Shown here: positions 1 through 10,210 of the stretch, one piece after another
How positions within the stretch are numbered: position 1 is the stretch's first letter
Layout: each line of letters begins with the position of its first letter
Virus genome (UHGV): UHGV-0150968
Direction: 5' to 3' (one strand)
Origin: a virus
DNA: 10,210 nucleotides
Position numbers and translations under genes: made by a program
The notes under the pieces: model-generated
Database searches by the model: none
Told to the model about the DNA's origin: nothing
Seen by the model: the letters and a program-made list of their open reading frames with translations, nothing else

Positions 1-301
1 ATCCATAACTACCTGTAATTGCCCCCCTTTTTTTGTAACAGTTCTTATATTGCTATATAGAATAGCCATTACTAATGCATTTAAATTTAATAAAATAAAA
101 ATTATAAAAAACATAAAACACCACGCAAACACACTTAATAAAAACACCGTTACATTAAAAGATAATAAAAACCACAATAAAAAACGAATAAATCAATTGT
201 CTCACGCAATTATAAAACATCATATTGATTACGCACCTTGTATTACAAACTCATGTATGTAAAATACGCGCACCATTCAAAAAAAAGGAAGACAATAACA
301 T

Positions 302-1261
302 ATGAAAAAAAGTGTCATCGCTGGCGTCTTTATTGCTCTGTCATTTACCACGTGTTCAGCTATCGCGAACAGCCTTGCATTATCATTAGCAAATGATGAT
401 GCAGGGAAGTTTCAACCAATACTTAATGATATTTATGGCAATAAACATGAAAACAGAGATGATTACTCACAAGGCTTATTTCTGGGATATAGCCACGATA
501 TCTCAGACTCGAGCCAATTATCTCTCCATATTGCGCAAGATATTTACTCTCCATCAGGCAGTAATAAAAGACACAACACAGCTGTAACTGGAGACAGAGC
601 TTTTAGTGCATACACTCACACTGGTATTGAATGGAACTCCCTTGCGAATGACTGGATTCGCTATCGATTAGGTACTGACATAGGTGTTGTTGGCCCCGAC
701 GCAGGCGGTCAGAAAGTACAAAATAAAGCTCATGAGATTATTGGGGCAGAAAAATATCATGCATGGGATGATCAAATAGAGAATCGCTACGGTTATACTG
801 TAAAAGGGATGCTATCCATGACACCAAGTATGGATATTTTAGGTGCTAATGTTGGATTATACCCTGAAGTTTCTGCTGTTACTGGAAACTTATTTCAATA
901 TGTAGCATATGGCGCAACCATTGCCATTGGTAATGATAAAACCTTCAATTCGGATAATGGCTTTGGTCTGCTGGCTCCCCGTGGTTTAATGCATATGTCC
1001 GATACAAGCGGATTCAAATACAAGATTTTTGCAGGTATGGAAAGACGAGATGTCAATCGCAACTATACTCTCGAAGGAAAAACAATACAGACGAAACAAA
1101 CAACAGTATCGCTGAACAAAACTGTTGATGAATATCAAGTTGGCGCAACAATTGGGTATGCACCTGTAGCCTTCACACTAGCATTTAATAAAGTAACATC
1201 AGAATTCAAGACAGGGGATGACTATTCATTTATAAATGGAGCAATCACCTTCTTTTTTTAA
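302..1261 (+). CDS. lpxR: Outer-membrane lipid A 3'-O-deacylase, LpxR family (319 aa precursor)
   Basis: N-terminal signal peptide (MKKSVIAGVFIALSFTTCSAIA); C-terminal aromatic ...ITFFF typical of OM beta-barrels; AGGAAG RBS about 10 nt upstream of ATG. If cleaved after AIA, mature residues N9, D10 and H122 coincide with the LpxR catalytic residues as I recall them (N9, D10, T34, H122), with S at position 34. Length matches Salmonella LpxR (319 aa) from memory. Confidence 0.6.
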   Translation: MKKSVIAGVFIALSFTTCSAIANSLALSLANDDAGKFQPILNDIYGNKHENRDDYSQGLFLGYSHDISDSSQLSLHIAQDIYSPSGSNKRHNTAVTGDRAFSAYTHTGIEWNSLANDWIRYRLGTDIGVVGPDAGGQKVQNKAHEIIGAEKYHAWDDQIENRYGYTVKGMLSMTPSMDILGANVGLYPEVSAVTGNLFQYVAYGATIAIGNDKTFNSDNGFGLLAPRGLMHMSDTSGFKYKIFAGMERRDVNRNYTLEGKTIQTKQTTVSLNKTVDEYQVGATIGYAPVAFTLAFNKVTSEFKTGDDYSFINGAITFFF

Positions 1262-1309
1262 CTGAATTGAATTCAATCAAAATAACATAAGTCCAACAAA
1301 AACATAAAG

Positions 1310-1344
1310 TGCGAAATGAATGCCAGCTCCATTTATTTCGCACT
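1310..1344. terminator. Perfect 9-bp inverted repeat (GTGCGAAAT...ATTTCGCAC) between convergent lpxR and ninI; T-rich tract follows on the - strand
   Basis: Seen directly in the sequence. On the - strand the hairpin is followed by CTTTATGTTTTTGTTGG; on the + strand the trailing sequence is A/T-rich but not a clean U-run. Confidence 0.4.
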
Positions 1345-1464
1345 ATAAAAGATTAAAAGTTGCAATAAAATGACTCAGTTACGAAAACCAATAAACTGTG
1401 GCCAGTAGTGAGTCGCTCATCATCGGGCTTTTTGGCGAATGAAATTTAGCTACGCTTTCGAGTC

Positions 1465-2130
1465 TCATGCGCCTTCTCCCTGTACCTGAATCAATGTGAG
1501 GTTTCCGCAGAACACTGCGCCAGTATCGATATACATCTGGTTGGCAAATTTGAGTGGTTTCACTGCTGGCGTATGACCAAAGATGAACGTGTCCGCGCCT
1601 TTGATTTCTTTCACGATCCCGTCTTGTGAGTTGCTGATTCGTTCGCGGTTCCAGATTACCTGCTGATGATCAACTGGCTTTCCAAACTCGTATTTATCAC
1701 AAGGATAATCGGCGTGGCAAATGACATATTTTTTATCTTTGCTCACCAGTTCGATGATTAACGGAAGTTCTTCTGCTTTATGGGCAAGAACTTTAGCCAG
1801 AGTCTCTTTGTCGTAATCGAGATTAAAGAACCAGCCACCGCCATTAAGCAGCCAGTGATTAACGTTTCCACGCTCTGATAAGCCATCAATCATCATTTGC
1901 TCATGGTTTCCACGCACAGCTCTGAACCAGGGGAATGTGATTAATTCCAGACATTCGACGTTCTCTGTACCGCGATCAACCAAATCGCCAACCGAGATGA
2001 GCAGGTCTTTTTTGGTGTCGAATCCAATCGTATCCAGTTTGTTCATCAGGTTCGTGTAGCATCCGTGCAGGTCGCCAGCTACCCAAATATTTCGGTATTT
2101 GCTGCCATCAATTCTTTCGTAGATATTCAT
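1465..2130 (-). CDS. ninI: Ser/Thr protein phosphatase, lambda NinI (orf221) type, 221 aa
   Basis: PPP-family motifs GDLHG, GDLVDRG and GNHE are present; the protein closely resembles my recollection of lambda orf221; start ATG overlaps the ninG stop (ATGA). Confidence 0.85.
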
Positions 2131-2741
2131 GCAGCCTCACTTCTGCTGTTTCGCAGGTCTTTGAGTTTCTGTTGGTACTCTGCCTTGATCGCCTTGCACT
2201 CTTCGACAGTCCAGCGATGGCGGTTATGGTTTGATTCGATTTCGTCTACTGCTTCCTGCCCGATGCGGCTAATCAGTTCGACGCGATACGGAACGAGATT
2301 TCCGCTTTTGTGCTGGTTGCACACCACGCATTGCTTGTGAATATTGCGTTCATCAAATCGGAGTTGAGGTGCCGCAGCAGTTGTCCGGTAATGTCCGGCA
2401 TCCCACTGAGCAGACGTGAGCGTTCCGCACGAGATACATGGTAAGTCGCGGTCTCTTTCTCTGATGAAGGCGTTTACGGCTTGTTGGGCTTGTTTAATCC
2501 AGTAACTGCGGGGCTTTAAGGCGAGTTTTCGAATCTTAAGTTTATCTTTCTGTTTCTGCTCCTCTCGTCGTCGTTTCTTCTCTGCTGCTTTTTCCGCTTT
2601 TTCGCGTTCTTTACTTCGTCGTTCGAGTGCTATCTTGGTTCCACACTCTGGAGAGCACCACCACTGATTAGCGAATGCAGGGTGAAACCATTCCCGACAT
2701 TCATCGTTTTTACATCGTCTTCGCGCTGGTTTAGCCATCAT
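2127..2741 (-). CDS. ninG: NinG / Rap recombination-associated endonuclease, 204 aa
   Basis: 204 aa as in lambda NinG; N-terminus [15 protein letters not shown]...; several Cys pairs; its start overlaps the ninF stop. Confidence 0.85.
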
Positions 2742-2901
2742 CTTCTTCCTCGTGCATCGAGCTATTCGAATCGCTCATCAGCTCTGCACAGCAGTGCTCA
2801 CACACGTGAACTTCCAGCACATGCAGCTTCTGACCGCAATTAGCGCACGTTAAAGCCCGCTCGACGCTTTCTTGTTCGTAACTTCGATTTGGGTCAATCA
2901 C
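2731..2901 (-). CDS. ninF: NinF-like small Cys-rich protein (56 aa from GTG at 2901; the ORF track extends to a GTG at 2943 giving 70 aa)
   Basis: C-terminal part ([20 protein letters not shown]...EEEDDG) matches lambda NinF as I recall it. The GTG at 2901 has a GAGGAA SD 8 nt upstream and overlaps the ninE stop (GTGA); the upstream GTG has no SD. Confidence 0.6.
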
Positions 2902-3080
2902 CTTGTATTCCTCGCACGATGTCTTAGCCACCGGATATCCCACAGGTGAGCCGTGTAGTTGAAGGTTTTTACGTCAGATTCTTTTGGGATTGGCTTGCGT
3001 TTATTTCTGGAGCGTTTCGTTGGAAGGTATTTGCAGTTTTCGCAGATGATGTCGGTGAAACTTCGTCGTTGTCGCCTCAT
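2898..3080 (-). CDS. ninE: NinE, 60 aa
   Basis: 60 aa, [29 protein letters not shown]..., consistent with lambda NinE; ATG overlaps the stop of the upstream ORF (ATGA). Confidence 0.75.
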
Positions 3081-3373
3081 GCCGCCCTCCTGACGCCCTG
3101 CCCGATCGCCATCAATGCCGCTTTGGATACGATAGTAAACATCCGTCGAGGACTAATGAACGGTCGCCAAATCAGCAGCATGGAGCCTTTGCTGTTTCCC
3201 TTCTTCTCCAGCCCTGTCGATGGTTCGATAAAATTAATCCGTCCATCAGTGATAATACGAACTTCGTCAACACTCTCCAGAGCCTTGCTGAACCATCCGA
3301 CAGACATATCCTCTGGCACAAGCATCACTACACGAGAACCAGCGAGCCTGATGTGGTTAAAAGACAGGCACAA
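3077..3373 (-). CDS. Hypothetical protein upstream of ninE; start uncertain (TTG at 3373, first ATG at 3325), possibly a 5'-truncated remnant
   Basis: Its stop is coupled to the ninE start (ATGA) and its composition is protein-like, unlike the antisense frame. It has no ATG start or good SD, and the frame closes 2 codons upstream of 3373, within about 35 bp of the + strand orf28. Confidence 0.4.
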
Positions 3374-3408
3374 TCTTTACTACCGCAATCCACTATTTAA
3401 GGTGATAT

Positions 3409-3495
3409 ATGGAAGAAGAATTTGAAGAGTTCGAAGAGCATCCTCAGGATGTGATGGAACAATACCAGGACTATCCGTATGACTACGACTATTGA
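3409..3495 (+). CDS. Lambda orf28-like acidic peptide (28 aa, MEEEFEEFEEHPQDVMEQYQDYPYDYDY)
   Basis: AAGGTG SD upstream; overlaps the ral start by 17 bp, as in lambda by my recollection. Confidence 0.6.
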   Translation: MEEEFEEFEEHPQDVMEQYQDYPYDYDY

Positions 3496-3679
3496 TAAAA
3501 ATCAATGGTGTGGACAATTCAAGCGATGCAATGGATGCAAGCTGCAATCGAAATGCATGGTTAAGCCTGAAGAAATGTTTCCTGTAATGGAAGATGGGAA
3601 ATATGTCGATAAATGGGCAATACGAACGACGGCAATGATTGCCAGAGAACTTGGTAAACAGAACAACAAGGCTGCCTGA
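3479..3679 (+). CDS. ral: Ral, restriction-alleviation protein, 66 aa
   Basis: Protein MTTTIDKNQWCGQFKRCNGCKLQSKC...GKQNNKAA matches lambda Ral length and sequence from memory. Confidence 0.9.
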   Translation: MTTTIDKNQWCGQFKRCNGCKLQSKCMVKPEEMFPVMEDGKYVDKWAIRTTAMIARELGKQNNKAA

Positions 3680-3696
3680 TGGTGGCCTTCATTTTT
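3668..3696 (+). terminator. Hairpin plus U-tract immediately after ral, with the stop codon in the loop
   Basis: AAGGCTGCC-TGAT-GGTGGCCTT stem-loop followed by CATTTTT; seen in the sequence. Confidence 0.5.
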
Positions 3697-3718
3697 GGCA
3701 TAAACAACAGAGGCGAAG

Positions 3719-3916
3719 ATGTTGACAGTTGGAAAGGCATATTCAACTAAAAATGGAAAGACATTTAGTTGTGAAAAAGATATTGGAGAAATAGACACTA
3801 TCTTTCCATTTGGTGGATGGGTATACAATTCTGATGGAAGCAAAGACAGATTTGCATATTACACCAGAGGAGGTACTTATAAACTAACCAAATCAGAATA
3901 TGATTTAATTATTTAG
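3719..3916 (+). CDS. Hypothetical small protein, 65 aa, no recognisable family
   Basis: ATG with GAGG SD 5 nt upstream; AT-rich coding sequence; Gly/Tyr/Lys/Thr-rich product (MLTVGKAYSTKNGKTFSCEKDIGEIDTIFPFGGWVYNSDGSKDRFAYYTRGG...). It sits in the ral-ea10 intergenic region, which is about 205 bp longer here than in lambda by my recollection of coordinates. Confidence 0.5.
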   Translation: MLTVGKAYSTKNGKTFSCEKDIGEIDTIFPFGGWVYNSDGSKDRFAYYTRGGTYKLTKSEYDLII

Positions 3917-4020
3917 CACAGAGAAGCACTGTGTATTCATTCCAACGAGTGAATACACGGAGCAATGTCGCTCGTAACTAAACAGGAGCCGACTTGTTCT
4001 GATTATTGGAAATCTTCTTT

Positions 4021-4047
4021 GCCCTCCAATGTGAGGGCGATTTTTTA
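4021..4047 (+). terminator. Intrinsic terminator (GCCCTC-CAATGT-GAGGGC then GATTTTTTA) just upstream of ea10; position fits lambda tL2a
   Basis: Perfect 6-bp GC-rich stem followed by a T-run; maps to about lambda 33,930 under the coordinate offset inferred from int to ea10. Confidence 0.6.
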
Positions 4048-4066
4048 TCTGTGAGGATATGAACAG

Positions 4067-4435
4067 ATGTCAAACATCAAAAAATACATCATTGATTACG
4101 ACTGGAAAGCATCAATAGAAATTGAAATCGACCATGACGTAATGACAGAGGAAAAACTTCACCAGATTAATAATTTCTGGTCAGACTCTGAATACCGACT
4201 CAATAAACACGGCTCTGTATTAAATGCTGTATTAATCATGCTGGCGCAACATGCTCTGCTTATAGCAATTTCAAGCGACTTAAATGCATATGGTGTTGTG
4301 TGTGAGTTCGACTGGAATGATGGAAATGGTCAGGAAGGATGGCCTCCAATGGATGGTAGCGAAGGAATAAGAATTACCGATATCGATACATCAGGAATAT
4401 TTGATTCAGATGATATGACTATCAAAGCCGCCTGA
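4067..4435 (+). CDS. ea10: Ea10 protein, 122 aa
   Basis: 122 aa as in lambda Ea10; GAGGA SD upstream. Confidence 0.85.
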   Translation: MSNIKKYIIDYDWKASIEIEIDHDVMTEEKLHQINNFWSDSEYRLNKHGSVLNAVLIMLAQHALLIAISSDLNAYGVVCEFDWNDGNGQEGWPPMDGSEGIRITDIDTSGIFDSDDMTIKAA

Positions 4436-4458
4436 GCGCGGCGTTACCGCATACCAAT

Positions 4459-4485
4459 AACGCTTCACTCGAGGCGTTTTTCGTT
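4459..4485 (+). terminator. Hairpin (AACGCTTC-ACTC-GAGGCGTT) plus U-rich tail between ea10 and cIII; position fits lambda tL2b
   Basis: 8-bp stem with one G-U pair followed by TTTCGTT; seen in the sequence. Confidence 0.45.
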
Positions 4486-4507
4486 ATGTATAAATAAGGA
4501 GCACACC

Positions 4508-4672
4508 ATGCAATATGCCATTGCAGGGTGGCCTGTTGCTGGCTGCCCTTCCGAATCTTTACTTGAACGAATCACCCGTAAATTACGTGACGGATGGAAA
4601 CGCCTTATCGACATACTTAATCAGCCAGGAGTCCCAAAAAATGGATCAAACACTTATGGCTATCCAGACTAA
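4508..4672 (+). CDS. cIII: CIII, FtsH-inhibitor that stabilises CII, 54 aa
   Basis: Below the ORF-track size cutoff; translated by hand as [54 protein letters not shown]; AAGGAG SD upstream. Confidence 0.9.
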   Translation: MQYAIAGWPVAGCPSESLLERITRKLRDGWKRLIDILNQPGVPKNGSNTYGYPD

Positions 4673-4805
4673 ATTCACTATCGCCACTTTTATTGGCGAT
4701 GAAAAGATGTTTCGTGAGGCCGTCGACGCTTATAAAAAATGGATATTAATACTGAAACTGAGATCAAGCAAAAGCATTCACTACCCCCCTTCCCTGTTTT
4801 CCTAA
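4641..4805 (+). CDS. kil: Kil, host-killing FtsZ inhibitor; 54 aa here versus 47 aa in reference lambda by recollection
   Basis: ATG at 4641 overlaps the 3' end of cIII by 32 bp as in lambda; product [47 protein letters not shown] followed by YPPSLFS. Confidence 0.75.
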
Positions 4806-5155
4806 TCAGCCCGGCATTTCGCGGACGATATTTTCACAGCTATTTCAGGAGTTCAGCCATGAACGCTTATTACATTCAGGATCGTCTTGAGGCTCAGAGC
4901 TGGACGCGTCACTACCAGCAGCTCGCCCGTGAAGAGAAAGAGGCAGAACTGGCAGACGACATGGAAAAAAGCCTGCCCCAGCACCTGTTTGAATCGCTAT
5001 GCATCGATCATTTGCAACGCCACGGGGCCAGCAAAAAAGCCATTACCCGTGCGTTTGATGACGATGTTGAGTTTCAGGAGCGCATGGCAGAACACATCCG
5101 GTACATGGTTGAAACCATTGCTCACCACCAGGTTGATATTGATTCAGAGGTATAA
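4739..5155 (+). CDS. gam: Gam (long form 138 aa; short form from the internal ATG at 4859 with AGGAG SD), RecBCD inhibitor
   Basis: Length and sequence match lambda Gam from memory. Confidence 0.9.
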
Positions 5156-5160
5156 AACGG

Positions 5161-5946
5161 ATGAGTACAGCACTCGCAACGCTGGCAGGGAAGCTGGCTG
5201 AACGTGTCGGCATGGATTCTGTCGACCCACAGGAACTGATCACCACTCTTCGCCAGACGGCATTTAAAGGTGATGCCAGCGATGCGCAGTTCATCGCATT
5301 GTTGATCGTCGCCAACCAGTACGGCCTTAATCCGTGGACGAAAGAAATTTACGCCTTCCCTGATAAGCAGAACGGCATCGTTCCGGTGGTGGGCGTTGAT
5401 GGCTGGTCCCGCATCATCAATGAAAACCAGCAGTTTGATGGCATGGACTTTGAGCAGGACAATGAATCATGTACATGCCGGATTTACCGCAAGGACCGTA
5501 ATCATCCGATCTGCGTTACCGAGTGGATGGATGAATGCCGCCGCGAACCATTCAAAACCCGCGAAGGCAGAGAAATCACCGGACCGTGGCAGTCGCATCC
5601 CAAACGGATGTTACGGCATAAAGCCATGATTCAGTGTGCCCGTCTGGCCTTCGGATTTGCTGGTATCTATGACAAGGATGAAGCCGAGCGCATTGTCGAA
5701 AATACTGCATACACTGCAGAACGTCAGCCGGAACGCGACATCACTCCGGTTAACGATGAAACCATGCAGGAGATTAACACTCTGCTGATCGCCCTGGATA
5801 AAACATGGGATGACGACTTATTGCCGCTCTGTTCCCAGATATTTCGCCGCGACATTCGCGCATCGTCAGAACTGACACAGGCCGAAGCAGTGAAAGCTCT
5901 TGGATTCCTGAAACAGAAAGCCACTGAGCAGAAGGTGGCAGCATGA
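5161..5946 (+). CDS. bet: Bet (Red-beta) single-strand annealing protein, 261 aa
   Basis: 261 aa; [37 protein letters not shown]... matches lambda Bet. Confidence 0.95.
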
Positions 5947-6623
5947 CACCGGACATTATCCTGCAGCGTACCGGGATCGACGTGAGAGCTGTCGAACAGG
6001 GGGATGATGCATGGCACAAATTACGGCTCGGCGTCATCACCGCTTCAGAAGTTCACAACGTGATAGCAAAGCCCCGCTCAGGAAAGAAGTGGCCTGACAT
6101 GAAAATGTCCTACTTCCACACCCTGCTGGCTGAGGTTTGCACCGGTGTGGCTCCGGAAGTTAATGCTAAGGCGCTGGCCTGGGGAAAACAGTACGAGAAC
6201 GACGCCAGAACCCTGTTTGAATTCACTTCCGGCGTGAATGTTACTGAATCCCCGATCATCTATCGCGACGAAAGTATGCGCACCGCCTGCTCTCCCGATG
6301 GTTTATGCAGTGACGGCAACGGCCTTGAACTGAAATGCCCGTTTACCTCCCGGGATTTCATGAAATTCCGGCTCGGTGGTTTCGAGGCAATAAAATCGGC
6401 TTACATGGCCCAGGTGCAGTACAGCATGTGGGTGACGCGAAAAGATGCCTGGTACTTTGCCAACTATGACCCGCGTATGAAGCGTGAAGGCCTGCATTAT
6501 GTCGTGATTGAGCGGAATGAAAAGTACATGGCGAGTTTTGACGAGATGGTGCCGGAGTTCATCGAAAAAATGGACGAGGCACTGGCTGAAATTGGTTTTG
6601 TATTTGGGGAGCAATGGCGATGA
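5943..6623 (+). CDS. exo: Exo (Red-alpha) 5'-3' exonuclease, 226 aa
   Basis: 226 aa; ATGA overlap with the bet stop; sequence matches lambda Exo. Confidence 0.95.
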
Positions 6624-6799
6624 CGCATCCTCACGATAATATCCGGGTAGGCGCAATCACTTTCGTCTACTCCGTTACAAAGCGAGGCTGGGTATTTCCC
6701 GGCCTTTCTGTAATCCGAAATCCCCTGAAAGCACAGCGGCTGGCTGAGGAGATAAATAATAAACGGGGGGGGCTGTATGCACAAAGCATCTCCCGTTGA
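6620..6799 (+). CDS. Lambda orf60a-like small protein (59 aa from the ATG overlapping the exo stop; 61 aa from ATG 6614)
   Basis: ATGA coupling to the exo stop; the C-terminal reading frame depends on the G8 homopolymer at 6765-6772. Confidence 0.55.
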
Positions 6800-6968
6800 G
6801 TTAAGAACGAGTATCGAGATGGCACATAGCCTCGCTCAAATTGGAGTCAGGTTTGTGCCAATACCAGTAGAAACAGACGAAGAATTTCACACGTTAGCCG
6901 CATCCCTTTCACAAAAGCTGGAAATGATGGTGGCGAAAGCAGAAGCAGATGAGAGAGACCAGGTATGA
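6777..6968 (+). CDS. Lambda orf63-like protein, 63 aa
   Basis: 63 aa; the G-run 4 nt upstream serves as SD; overlaps the preceding ORF. Confidence 0.7.
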   Translation: MHKASPVELRTSIEMAHSLAQIGVRFVPIPVETDEEFHTLAASLSQKLEMMVAKAEADERDQV

Positions 6969-7048
6969 CAACCACTGAATGCATTTTTCTGGCAGCGGGC
7001 TTCATATTCTGTGTGCTTATGCTTGCCGACATGGGACTTGTTCAATGA
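6965..7048 (+). CDS. Possible 27-aa hydrophobic peptide (MTTTECIFLAAGFIFCVLMLADMGLVQ)
   Basis: ATGA-coupled to the orf63 stop and to the next ORF start; one predicted transmembrane stretch; very short, so speculative. Confidence 0.3.
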   Translation: MTTTECIFLAAGFIFCVLMLADMGLVQ

Positions 7049-7260
7049 CACCTCAGCAGGAAAACGCCCTTCGCAGCATTGCCCGTCAGGCTAATTCTGA
7101 AATCAAAAAAGCCAGACAGCAGTTTCCGGATAAAAACGTCGATGACATTTGCCGTAGCGTACTGAAGAAGCACCGCGAAACGGTAACGCTGATGGGATTC
7201 ACACCGACTCATTTAAGCCTGGCAATCGGCATGTTAAACGGCGTCTTTAAGGAACGATGA
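7045..7260 (+). CDS. Hypothetical 71-aa protein (MTPQQENALRSIARQANSEIKKARQQFPDKNVDD...)
   Basis: ATGA-coupled on both ends; protein-like composition. Confidence 0.5.
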   Translation: MTPQQENALRSIARQANSEIKKARQQFPDKNVDDICRSVLKKHRETVTLMGFTPTHLSLAIGMLNGVFKER

Positions 7261-7281
7261 ACATGAAAAGCAAAATCATCA

Positions 7282-7306
7282 GGGAGCTACAGGCTCCTTT
7301 TTTATT
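7282..7306 (+). terminator. Hairpin (GGGAGC-TACAG-GCTCC) followed by TTTTTTATT
   Basis: Seen in the sequence; lies inside a possible 31-aa ORF (7257-7352), which I therefore do not call as a gene. Confidence 0.45.
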
Positions 7307-7358
7307 ATTCGCATTCACCCTCAAGCGTATTAACCAACAATTCAGGGATTAATGAAAG

Positions 7359-7580
7359 ATGGCAGACATCATTGATTCAGCATCAGAAATTGAAGAATTA
7401 CAGCGCAACACAGCAATAAAAATGCGCCGCCTGAACCACCAGGCTATATCTGCCACTCATTGTTGTGAGTGTGGCGATCCCATAGATGAGCGAAGACGCC
7501 TGGCCGTTCAGGGTTGTCGGACTTGTGCAAGTTGCCAGGAAGATCTGGAGCTTATCAGTAAACAGAGAGGTTCGAAGTGA
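7359..7580 (+). CDS. TraR/DksA-family C4 zinc-finger protein, 73 aa (lambda orf73-like)
   Basis: CxxC...CxxC pattern (HCCECGD ... GCRTCASC) with about 17-residue spacing, typical of the TraR/DksA C-terminal zinc finger; stop overlaps the ea22 GTG start. Confidence 0.75.
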   Translation: MADIIDSASEIEELQRNTAIKMRRLNHQAISATHCCECGDPIDERRRLAVQGCRTCASCQEDLELISKQRGSK

Positions 7581-8125
7581 GCGAAATTAACTCTCAGGCA
7601 CTGCGTGAAGCGGCAGAGCAGGCAATGCATGACGACTGGGGATTTGACGCAGACCTTTTCCATGAATTGGTAACACCATCGATTGTGCTGGAACTGCTGG
7701 ATGAACGGGAAAGAAACCAGCAATACATCAAACGCCGCGACCAGGAGAACGAGGATATTGCGCTAACAGTAGGGAAACTGCGTGTTGAGCTTGAAACAGC
7801 AAAATCAAAACTCAACGAGCAGCGTGAGTATTACGAAGGTGTTATCTCGGATGGGAGTAAGCGTATTGCTAAACTGGAAAGCAACGAAGTCCGTGAAGAC
7901 GGAAACCAGTTTCTTGTTGTTCGCCATCCTGGGAAGACTCCTGTTATCAAGCACTGCACTGGTGACCTGGAAGAGTTTCTGCGGCAGTTAATCGAACAAG
8001 ACCCGTTAGTAACTATCGACATCATTACGCATCGCTATTACGGGGTTGGAGGTCAATGGGTTCAGGATGCAGGTGAGTATCTGCATATGATGTCTGACGC
8101 TGGCATTCGCATCAAAGGAGAGTGA
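7577..8125 (+). CDS. ea22: Ea22 protein, 182 aa, GTG start
   Basis: 182 aa from GTG, matching lambda Ea22 length; central coiled-coil-like region. Confidence 0.85.
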   Translation: MSEINSQALREAAEQAMHDDWGFDADLFHELVTPSIVLELLDERERNQQYIKRRDQENEDIALTVGKLRVELETAKSKLNEQREYYEGVISDGSKRIAKLESNEVREDGNQFLVVRHPGKTPVIKHCTGDLEEFLRQLIEQDPLVTIDIITHRYYGVGGQWVQDAGEYLHMMSDAGIRIKGE

Positions 8126-8316
8126 GATCGGTTTTGTAAAAGATAACGCTTGTGAAAATGCTGAATTTCGCGTCGTCTTCACAGCGATGCCAGAGTCTGT
8201 AGTGTCAGATGATGACCGTACTCAAACATCGGGTTGAGTATTATCTTACTGTTTCTTTACATAAACATTGCTGATACCGTTTAGCTGAAACGACATACAT
8301 TGCAAGGAGTTTATAA

Positions 8317-8598
8317 ATGAGTATCAATGAGTTAGAGTCTGAGCAAAAAGATTGGGCGTTATCAATGTTGTGCAGATCCGGTGTCTTGTCTCCATGCAGA
8401 CATCACGAAGGTGTTTATGTAGATGAAGGTATAGATATAGAGTCGGCATACAAATATTCCATGAAGGTTTATAAGTCTAATGAAGACAAATCCCCATTCT
8501 GCAATGTGCGAGAAATGACTGATACCGTGCAAAATTATTATCACGAGTACGGTGGAAACGATACTTGCCCTCTCTGTACAAAACATATAGATGATTAA
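8317..8598 (+). CDS. ea8.5: Ea8.5 protein, 93 aa
   Basis: 93 aa; AAGGAG SD; matches lambda Ea8.5 length and sequence from memory. Confidence 0.85.
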   Translation: MSINELESEQKDWALSMLCRSGVLSPCRHHEGVYVDEGIDIESAYKYSMKVYKSNEDKSPFCNVREMTDTVQNYYHEYGGNDTCPLCTKHIDD

Positions 8599-8615
8599 AC
8601 CCAATATTACATAAC

Positions 8616-8647
8616 AATCCTCGCACTCGCGGGGATTTATTTTATCT
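8616..8647 (+). terminator. GC-rich hairpin (AATCCTCGC-ACTC-GCGGGGATT) followed by TATTTTAT, downstream of ea8.5
   Basis: Seen in the sequence. Confidence 0.45.
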
Positions 8648-8686
8648 GAACTCGCTACGGCGGGTTTTGTTTTATGGAGATGATAA

Positions 8687-8854
8687 ATGCACTTCCGAGT
8701 CACAGGTGAATGGAATGGAGAGCCATTCAACAGGGTTATCGAAGCAGAGAACATCAACGACTGCTATAACCACTGGATGATATGGGCGCAGATAGCGCAT
8801 GCAGACGTAACCAATATTCGAATTGAAGAACTGAAAGAACACCAAGCCGCCTGA
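8687..8854 (+). CDS. Hypothetical 55-aa protein between ea8.5 and xis (MHFRVTGEWNGEPFNRVIEAENINDCYNHWMIWAQIAHADVTNIRIEELKEHQAA)
   Basis: GGAG SD 8 nt upstream; position corresponds to an unnamed lambda ORF at about 29118-29285 by recollection; below the ORF-track cutoff, translated by hand. Confidence 0.55.
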   Translation: MHFRVTGEWNGEPFNRVIEAENINDCYNHWMIWAQIAHADVTNIRIEELKEHQAA

Positions 8855-8866
8855 TGGCGGTTTTTT
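8846..8866 (+). terminator. Hairpin GCCGCC-TGAT-GGCGG followed by TTTTTT, with the 55-aa ORF stop codon in the loop
   Basis: Seen in the sequence. Confidence 0.5.
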
Positions 8867-8867
8867 C

Positions 8868-8906
8868 TTGCGTGTAATTGCGGAGACTTTGCGATGTACT
8901 TGACAC
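8868..8906 (+). promoter_or_regulatory. pI (int promoter) with CII recognition repeat TTGC-N6-TTGC at 8868-8881
   Basis: TTGCGTGTAATTGC seen directly. Established lambda biology: the CII-dependent pI starts inside xis, so its transcript makes Int but not Xis. The -10 and start-site positions are inferred. Confidence 0.55.
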
Positions 8907-9112
8907 TTCAGGAGTGGAACGCTCGCCAGCGACGCCCAAGAAGCCTTGAAACAGTTCGTCGATGGGTGCGCGAATGCAGGATATTCCCTCCTCCGGTTAA
9001 GGATGGAAGAGAATATCTGTTCCACGAATCAGCGGTAAAGGTTGACTTAAATCGACCAGTAACAGGTAGCCTTTTGAAGAGGATCAGAAATGGGAAGAAG
9101 GCGAAGTCATGA
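8894..9112 (+). CDS. xis: Excisionase Xis, 72 aa
   Basis: MYLTLQEWNARQRRPRSLETVRRWVRECRIFPPPVKDGREYLFHESAVKVDLNRPVTGSLLKRIRNGKKAKS matches lambda Xis; 23-bp overlap with int. Confidence 0.95.
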   Translation: MYLTLQEWNARQRRPRSLETVRRWVRECRIFPPPVKDGREYLFHESAVKVDLNRPVTGSLLKRIRNGKKAKS

Positions 9113-10160
9113 GCGCCGGGATTTACCCCCTAACCTTTATATAAGAAACAATGGATATTACTGCTACAGGGACCCAAGGACGGGTAAAGAGTTTGGATTA
9201 GGCAGAGACAGGCGAATCGCAATCACTGAAGCTATACAGGCCAACATTGAGTTATTTTCAGGACACAAACACAAGCCTCTGACAGCGAGAATCAACAGTG
9301 ATAATTCCGTTACGTTACATTCATGGCTTGATCGCTACGAAAAAATCCTGGCCAGCAGAGGAATCAAACAGAAGACACTCATAAATTACATGAGCAAAAT
9401 TAAAGCAATAAGGAGGGGTCTGCCTGATGCTCCACTTGAAGACATCACCACAAAAGAAATTGCGGCAATGCTCAATGGATACATAAACGAGGGCAAGGCG
9501 GCGTCAGCCAAGTTAATCAGATCAACACTGAGCGATGCATTCCGAGAGGCAATAGCTGAAGGCCATATAACAACAAACCCTGTCGCTGCCACTCGCGCAG
9601 CAAAATCAGAGGTAAGGAGATCAAGACTTACGGCTGACGAATACCTGAAAATTTATCAAGCAGCAGAATCATCACCATGTTGGCTCAGACTTGCAATGGA
9701 ACTGGCTGTTGTTACCGGGCAACGAGTTGGTGATTTATGCGAAATGAAGTGGTCTGATATCGTAGATGGATATCTTTATGTCGAGCAAAGCAAAACAGGC
9801 GTAAAAATTGCCATCCCAACAGCATTGCATGTTGATGCTCTCGGAATATCAATGAAGGAAACACTTGATAAATGCAAAGAGATTCTTGGCGGAGAAACCA
9901 TAATTGCATCTACTCGTCGCGAACCGCTTTCATCCGGCACAGTATCAAGGTATTTTATGCGCGCACGAAAAGCATCAGGTCTTTCCTTCGAAGGGGATCC
10001 GCCTACCTTTCACGAGTTGCGCAGTTTGTCTGCAAGACTCTATGAGAAGCAGATAAGCGATAAGTTTGCTCAACATCTTCTCGGGCATAAGTCGGACACC
10101 ATGGCATCACAGTATCGTGATGACAGAGGCAGGGAGTGGGACAAAATTGAAATCAAATAA
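9090..10160 (+). CDS. int: Tyrosine integrase Int, 356 aa
   Basis: 356 aa; sequence matches lambda Int from memory, including the C-terminal catalytic region (...HLLGHKSDTMASQYRDDRGREWDKIEIK). Confidence 0.97.
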   Translation: MGRRRSHERRDLPPNLYIRNNGYYCYRDPRTGKEFGLGRDRRIAITEAIQANIELFSGHKHKPLTARINSDNSVTLHSWLDRYEKILASRGIKQKTLINYMSKIKAIRRGLPDAPLEDITTKEIAAMLNGYINEGKAASAKLIRSTLSDAFREAIAEGHITTNPVAATRAAKSEVRRSRLTADEYLKIYQAAESSPCWLRLAMELAVVTGQRVGDLCEMKWSDIVDGYLYVEQSKTGVKIAIPTALHVDALGISMKETLDKCKEILGGETIIASTRREPLSSGTVSRYFMRARKASGLSFEGDPPTFHELRSLSARLYEKQISDKFAQHLLGHKSDTMASQYRDDRGREWDKIEIK

Positions 10161-10210
10161 TGATTTTATTTTGACTGATAGTGACCTGTTCGTTGCAACA
10201 AATTGATAAG
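10161..10210. other. att-site P' arm with tandem Int arm-type binding sites (reverse complement AGGTCACTAT and CAGTCAAAAT at 10168-10187); the core lies beyond the window end
   Basis: The reverse complement of the window end reads GTTGCAACGAACAGGTCACTATCAGTCAAAATAAAATCA, the familiar lambda attP P' arm. Confidence 0.7.

Follow-up and report, generated by a model that had tools for sequence, protein, structure and literature searches.

The window, that is, the whole analyzed stretch of 10,210 nucleotides from the UHGV virus genome UHGV-0150968, has the gene map of a lambdoid phage. Genes were called from the table of open reading frames (ORFs), from Pfam profiles, and by tblastn with the proteins of lambda. 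In comparison with lambda and phage 434, the window is collinear with the lambda gene order save for one internal deletion, and protein identity to these two phages is 88-100% across both of its blocks. In lambda orientation, the genes run from int through ral to orf28 and, past the deletion, as dam'-ninE-ninF-ninG-ninI-(Q')-lpxR. This is the order found in lambda, 434, 2G7b, PhiR11_1, and intact attLambda prophages (e.g., that of strain 14EC047), minus the deleted part. The following features were found in the window:

302-1261, + strand: lpxR, lipid A deacylase gene, a phage-borne accessory gene ("moron"); Pfam LpxR, E=6.8e-40
1394-1468, - strand: Q fragment of lambda type, N-terminal 25 codons; tblastn with lambda Q residues 1-25, 88% identity
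1465-2130, - strand: ninI, serine/threonine phosphatase gene; 94.6% to lambda NinI over the full length, Pfam Metallophos
2127-2741, - strand: ninG (rap); 99% to lambda NinG, Pfam NinG E=7e-92
2731-2901, - strand: ninF; 96% to lambda NinF, residues 1-56
2898-3080, - strand: ninE; Pfam NinE E=1.3e-42, 91% to lambda NinE
3077-3331, - strand: dam remnant, the last 84 codons and stop of a 175-aa phage N6-adenine methyltransferase gene; 100% DNA identity to 434 dam
3329-3331: deletion junction with a 3-bp microhomology, TAC, common to both parents; base-level alignment with 434, 2G7b, and lambda
3332-3408: remnant of the orf28-sieB intergenic region, with the orf28 ribosome-binding region and TGTA of the sieB -35 hexamer; alignment with P22 (BK000583)
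3409-3495, + strand: orf28; 100% to lambda orf28
3479-3679, + strand: ral, restriction alleviation gene; Pfam Ral E=1.4e-47, 98.5% to lambda Ral
3668-3689, + strand: putative terminator, a hairpin with a T-run just after ral; consensus scan
4019-4040 and 4459-4478, + strand: further putative terminators, hairpins; consensus scan
4067-4435, + strand: ea10 (DUF2528); 100% to lambda Ea10, Pfam
4495-4553, + strand: cIII thermoregulator RNA element, intact; Rfam RF01804, 88.5 bits vs. a gathering score of 50
4508-4672, + strand: cIII; 100% to lambda CIII
4641-4784, + strand: kil, host division inhibitor gene, intact; 100% to lambda Kil, 47 aa
4739-5155, + strand: gam, intact; 97.1% to lambda Gam, 138 aa
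5161-5946, + strand: bet, intact; 99.6% to lambda Bet, full length
5943-6623, + strand: exo, intact; 98.7% to lambda Exo, full length
8894-9112, + strand: xis, intact; 98.6% to lambda Xis
9090-10160, + strand: int, intact lambda-type integrase gene; 99.2% to lambda Int, 356 aa

Among the lambda proteins used as tblastn queries, those of orf28, ral, ea10, cIII, kil, gam, bet, exo, orf60a/63/61, ea22, ea8.5, xis, and int were all present in the left arm. They were aligned over their full length, except for orf60a and orf61, which were aligned over most of it. NinE, NinF, NinG, and NinI were also matched. All three reading frames of the Red module (gam, bet, and exo) are intact, and a previous reading of the DNA alone (herein referred to as the sequence-only reading), according to which the Red and integrase frames had been retained, was borne out by these full-length matches. 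The cIII thermoregulator was the sole Rfam match in the window. In the relatives, 135 bp separate int from ybhC, which places int at attLambda; the window stops 50 bp past int, short of the att core, and has no match to this core.

Several features of the gene map are common to the window and its relatives. Phage 434 and many attLambda prophages carry the same lpxR gene in this position. The Q fragment is shared with phage 434; its annotation there, and likewise in RefSeq prophages, is that of an antiterminator fragment. In 434 and its relatives, lpxR lies in the opposite orientation between this 25-codon fragment and a functional Q of the Q82 type, an arrangement resembling the scar of an earlier module replacement. 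No ninH is present between ninG and ninI, which run directly into each other (2127-2130); in this respect, the window differs from lambda and is like phage 434. The exact Ral protein of the window is very common, and at every sampled place, it was found in the normal N-sieB-ral context. A 65-aa ORF on the + strand between ral and ea10 (3719-3916) has no Pfam match and is not found in lambda, but is annotated as hypothetical in 2G7b and PhiR11_1. Between orf63 and ea22 (6979-7580), a 93-aa orf61-like ORF and a 73-aa ORF of the TraR/DksA zinc-finger type (7359-7580) are unlike lambda and match PhiR11_1 and Escherichia coli prophages. This difference from lambda is ordinary mosaicism.

The boundary between the two blocks was localized at base level. 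The sequence-only reading had drawn attention to a 98-aa ORF on the - strand (3077-3373), which overlaps ninE and diverges from orf28 (+ strand, start at 3409) across a gap of 35 bp. Both the coordinates and the gap were confirmed in the ORF table. The fusion of the nin module to orf28/ral, deduced from this arrangement, is real, but the breakpoint is located not in the 35-bp gap but at 3329-3331, 42-44 nt into the 98-aa ORF. The region was split cleanly at these positions by megablast against phages and complete E. coli genomes, and the alignment that had been proposed for the search of breakpoints and microhomology, made with lambda, 434, and 2G7b, revealed the shared TAC. Positions 1-3331 correspond to the lpxR-ninI-ninG-ninF-ninE-dam stretch of phage 434 with 99.9% identity, and positions 3329-10210 are collinear with lambda 34437->27762 with 98.7% identity and with PhiR11_1 with 99.6% identity. 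Close to the junction, identity is complete: positions 2700-3331 are 100% identical to phage 434 (dam-ninE-ninF-ninG) and positions 3329-4100 are 100% identical to the ral region of 2G7b and PhiR11_1. Thus, two blocks (3.3 kb and 6.9 kb), both of which match known phages at 98.7-100% identity, meet with nucleotide sharpness, and such a two-block junction is evidently not a chance pattern. In base-level alignments, the junction reads ...AAGCATCAC[TAC]ACGAGAACC..., with TAC alone shared by the parents.

The 98-aa ORF contains parts of both blocks. Against the Pfam Dam profile (PF05869), it covers only positions 84-167 of 169, i.e., the C-terminal half. Residues 15-98 of the ORF correspond to residues 92-175 of the Dam protein of phage 434, and the catalytic NPPY motif (residues 68-71 of 434 Dam) falls within the 91 deleted residues. 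The first 14 codons, beginning with a TTG start at 3373, are the antisense of the orf28-sieB intergenic DNA. Hence, the possibility that this ORF belongs to the early-left region, which would have spoken against a fusion, applies to these 14 codons only, the remaining 84 residues being Dam. Judging from these alignments, the ORF is a chimeric pseudogene fragment with a fortuitous N-terminus, and dam is inactivated. No exact protein record was found for the chimeric ORF in its 98-aa or 83-aa form. The 82-aa form with an ATG start had exact matches only to dam genes cut by the ends of draft contigs, which is uninformative. At least 21 contigs of different draft assemblies start exactly at the dam ATG that corresponds to position 3325 of the window, 6 nt from the junction. 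This is probably due to a shared repeat or mosaic boundary that breaks the assemblies of related clones, together with a look-up that selects this very position.

No matches for sieB, N, rexA/B, cI, cro, cII, O, P, ren, or ninB/C/D/H were found by tblastn with lambda proteins within the 10.2 kb of the window, to which the judgment of absence applies; a copy of a lost gene, a tandem prophage, or a helper may be present elsewhere in the genome. Additionally, no boxB of nutL or nutR, boxA, oL/oR operators, or ori iterons were found in the window with a tolerance of up to two mismatches (zero for the 8-nt boxA). The two flanking blocks together make up the entire window. These results agree with the earlier claim that N, pL, and the immunity and replication genes had been lost. 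Beyond these, sieB, ninB, and half of dam are also gone.

The size of the lost segment was estimated from related phages. Both exact 32-nt flanks of the junction are held by 2G7b and by PhiR11_1, in the same orientation and 6,970 bp apart. In a parent of this type, the lost segment includes the N-terminal half of dam, ninB, ren, P, O/ori, cII, cro, cI, two accessory genes, pL/nutL, N, and sieB. No single genome was found with both a nin arm of the 434 type and a sieB-ral arm of the 2G7b type at an identity of at least 99%. Because the exact parent was not found as one genome, the deletion size of 6,970 bp, or ~7 kb, is an estimate.

The early-left side of the junction lies within a promoter. 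The sieB gene is transcribed in lysogens. Its promoter, RNA start, and ATG are marked in the P22 record BK000583, and the region is nearly identical in 2G7b and lambda. No annotation of this promoter was found in the lambda records, and the phrase "sieB promoter" had no occurrence in the searchable literature. The window tracks its parents up to ...CTCGTGTA, the first bases of the -35 hexamer TGTACC, and then continues into dam. Of this hexamer, only TGTA is kept, and the -10 hexamer (TAAACT) and the RNA start are deleted. Survival of the sieB promoter as a driver of the nin genes was rejected on these grounds, the break being within the -35 hexamer and the -10 hexamer and RNA start being gone. 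A cryptic promoter at the junction was also rejected: the only nearby match on the - strand (3279-3252, 9/12) sits within dam'. In a crude consensus scan of the window, no promoter-like site reading into orf28 was found, and promoter-like matches overall were fewer than in shuffles of the window. No known promoter survives at the junction. The sieB promoter region (2G7b L001 8945-9003, and also in lambda and P22) contains two copies of CCCCTACAG(C/A)GAG, one on either side of the -10 hexamer and both conserved in P22 as well as in lambda-type phages, and a 7-bp inverted repeat, CTCGCTG...CAGCGAG. These repeats may be regulatory; most of the promoter region is deleted in the window.

Terminator-like hairpins precede cIII, kil, gam, bet, and exo. 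For read-through from lpxR, no strong predicted terminator was found before the junction. From the missing consensus signals, we infer, as the best reading, that both gene blocks are silent. The remnant would be unable to replicate or to be induced, and its inability to excise would follow, at the level of expression, from the loss of pL, N, and cII. The earlier statement that Kil, Gam, Bet, Exo, Xis, and Int have been left without pL and N holds for the window, in which their genes are intact.

Very probably, this arrangement arose by one internal deletion of ~7 kb in a prophage of the lambda/434 type, through illegitimate recombination at the TAC microhomology. The breakpoints, the gene content, the loss of all known control sites, and the inactivation of dam can be read directly from the nucleotides. 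Chance alone would give a microhomology of 3 bp or more at ~5% of random junctions; TAC fits illegitimate recombination and indicates the mechanism weakly. One end of the deletion would lie in the sieB promoter, at its -35 hexamer (77 bp upstream of orf28), and the other at codon 91 of dam. A single event would have removed sieB and N, the sites nutL and pL/oL, any accessory genes of the rex type, cI and cro with pR/oR, cII, O with ori, P, ren, ninB, and the catalytic N-terminal half of dam. Two promoter-less blocks would have been left back to back: dam'-ninE-ninF-ninG-ninI, formerly pR-dependent, and orf28-ral-ea10-cIII-kil-gam-bet-exo-...-xis-int, formerly dependent on pL and N. The kil, Red, xis, and int genes would be essentially silent: stray transcription from the left would be stopped at the hairpins after ral and around ea10, because there is no N to override them. 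In lambda, removal of cI alone derepresses kil and replication. Deletion of cI together with pL and pR would be tolerated because kil and replication are not unleashed, and this probably explains why the whole block went in one step. The event appears to be recent and private to the source genome.

An engineered deletion was rejected, FRT and loxP scars being absent from the window. Hairpins as deletion hotspots were likewise rejected, the DNA folds of three endpoint regions being no better than those of shuffles (z = -1.2, -0.75, and -0.3).

Three other explanations were weighed against a single internal deletion. It is unlikely that the junction is an artefact of assembly or of chimeric reads, joining the nin and early-left regions of one or two lambdoid prophages whose immunity region is intact in reality. 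Such an artefact would agree with the absence of the junction from every other genome and metagenome searched: in a megablast of positions 2700-4100, it was spanned in none of the 5,426 complete E. coli genomes and none of the 50,697 phage records, and its 38-nt and 22-nt patterns had no matches in the GTDB species representatives, IMG/VR, or the JGI metagenomes. Moreover, lambdoid prophages are notorious for their repeats, and the contigs of many draft assemblies are broken within this dam gene. However, the 3 bp common to both sides are far too few for a misjoin of k-mers or overlaps, and their orientation and order are exactly those predicted by a simple internal deletion. Finished genomes also carry equally sharp, independent deletions of the same region (see below).

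Recombination between two resident prophages, one contributing a 434-type nin arm and the other a lambda/2G7b-type left arm, maybe with a chromosomal rearrangement, is less likely still. The best matches do differ by arm, being phage 434 for positions 1-3331 and 2G7b/PhiR11_1 for positions 3329-10210, and this origin would also account for the failure to find both arms at 99% or more in a single genome. On the other hand, lambdoid genomes are mosaic, and single attLambda prophages join lpxR-nin and Red-int arms at 98-99% identity. The presence of both exact 32-nt flanks in one genome, 2G7b or PhiR11_1, also speaks for one parental prophage. With a homology of 3 bp, an event between prophages is no likelier than one inside a prophage and needs more assumptions.

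The least probable explanation, to which we give hardly any credence, is domestication, i.e., selection of the deletion with fixation of a host-controlled Red/Ral/LpxR set driven from the junction by a promoter that is new or cryptic. In support of it, the left-arm reading frames are all intact, similar deletions keeping gam-bet-exo recur in other strains, and read-through from lpxR meets no strong predicted terminator before the junction, but the sieB promoter, the only known lysogenic promoter here, is destroyed, no promoter-like site is found at the junction, and terminator-like sites stand before kil, gam, bet, and exo. The junction is also private to this genome, the analogous ones are each limited to one or two genomes, and this restricted occurrence gives no sign of spread or long retention. 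The identity of the junction flanks to live phages is 100% over 532 nt in one direction and 1,272 nt in the other. Intact frames are no evidence of selection here, because a recent deletion would leave them intact anyway. Neither conservation of the same remnant across lineages nor other signs of selection were found. Thus, the term "domesticated", applied to the element in the sequence-only reading, is unsupported, given the private junction and flanks identical to live phages.

The single internal deletion can be compared with the three phages that supply the arms and with other defective prophages. Phage 434, 2G7b, and PhiR11_1 match the two arms of the window with 99.6-100% identity. Unlike the window, they are viable and still have the intervening ~7 kb, with sieB, N, pL, cI, cro, cII, O, P, ren, ninB, and full-length dam. 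In "grounded", or defective, prophages, the control of induction, replication, or excision is lost by deletion, and accessory and recombination genes persist. The window is one more instance of such prophages, with nothing essential different.

A described element of this kind is prophage Sp3 of E. coli O157:H7 Sakai, which is without CI/Cro and O/P and cannot circularize, replicate, or be packaged (PMC2669165). Like the window, Sp3 is a lambdoid prophage with Red (exo-bet-gam), xis, and int in which CI/Cro and O/P functions are lost; its int and Red genes are reported to be disrupted, whereas those of the window are intact. The window resembles Sp3 in kind: it has no repressor/Cro or replication functions and keeps other lambdoid modules.

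Four further independent internal deletions of the region were found in E. coli prophages: in F3113, Z1323PEC0011, F247, and VE-T2/T10. The prophage of O157:H7 F3113, which we assume to correspond to Sp3/CP-933K, adjoins ybhC (attLambda), has the order lpxR-Q'-ninI-ninG-ninF-ninE, and carries an internal deletion of the early region. It differs from the window in that a truncated O abuts the region upstream of ea10, with ninB, ren, and P retained and ral missing. In the dog strain Z1323PEC0011, a fragment of cII abuts a fragment of ninB, an independent deletion. In F247 (NZ_OY754407), an N-terminally truncated dam is joined to the sieB promoter region, followed by ea10-cIII-kil-gam-bet-exo; the sieB-side endpoint is 15 bp from that of the window, and a short microhomology (TT) is present. 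In contrast to the window, the dam endpoint of F247 lies 94 bp further upstream, the nin arm is NinX-RusA-QuuD without lpxR, and ral and orf28 are absent. The F247 junction is an independent event. The partner of the truncated dam in VE-T2/VE-T10 is a different early-left gene. Neither the F247 nor the VE-T2 junction was found outside its own genome or clone.

The window represents an ordinary, strain-private decay of a prophage, of an already described kind, and not a new system. For annotation, "defective lambdoid prophage with a dam pseudogene" is appropriate rather than "inducible phage"; intact though they are, the exo/bet/gam, kil, xis, and int genes cannot be presumed to be expressed. 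Together with the four other junctions, the window shows that single-step loss of the whole cI-pL-pR-O-P block is a recurrent route of inactivation of lambdoid prophages, plausibly because smaller cI-only deletions would be lethal.

Three independent junctions (those of the window, F247, and VE-T2/T10) end in the first half of dam, and in F247 and the window, the other endpoint falls within 15 bp inside the sieB promoter. With so few events, this clustering is not significant. It is very improbable that "grounding" deletions are non-random, with hotspots or narrowly tolerated endpoints that repeatedly give rise to Red-carrying remnants without the immunity region, or that read-through from lpxR provides such remnants with a low constitutive expression of Ral or Red. 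In F247 (L031 5531/5532) and VE-T2 (L032 5690/5691), dam ends at the identical nucleotide (2G7b L001 2124), and the sequences joined to it are unrelated. This shared endpoint could be a hotspot, the result of shared ancestry with module exchange, or a coincidence.
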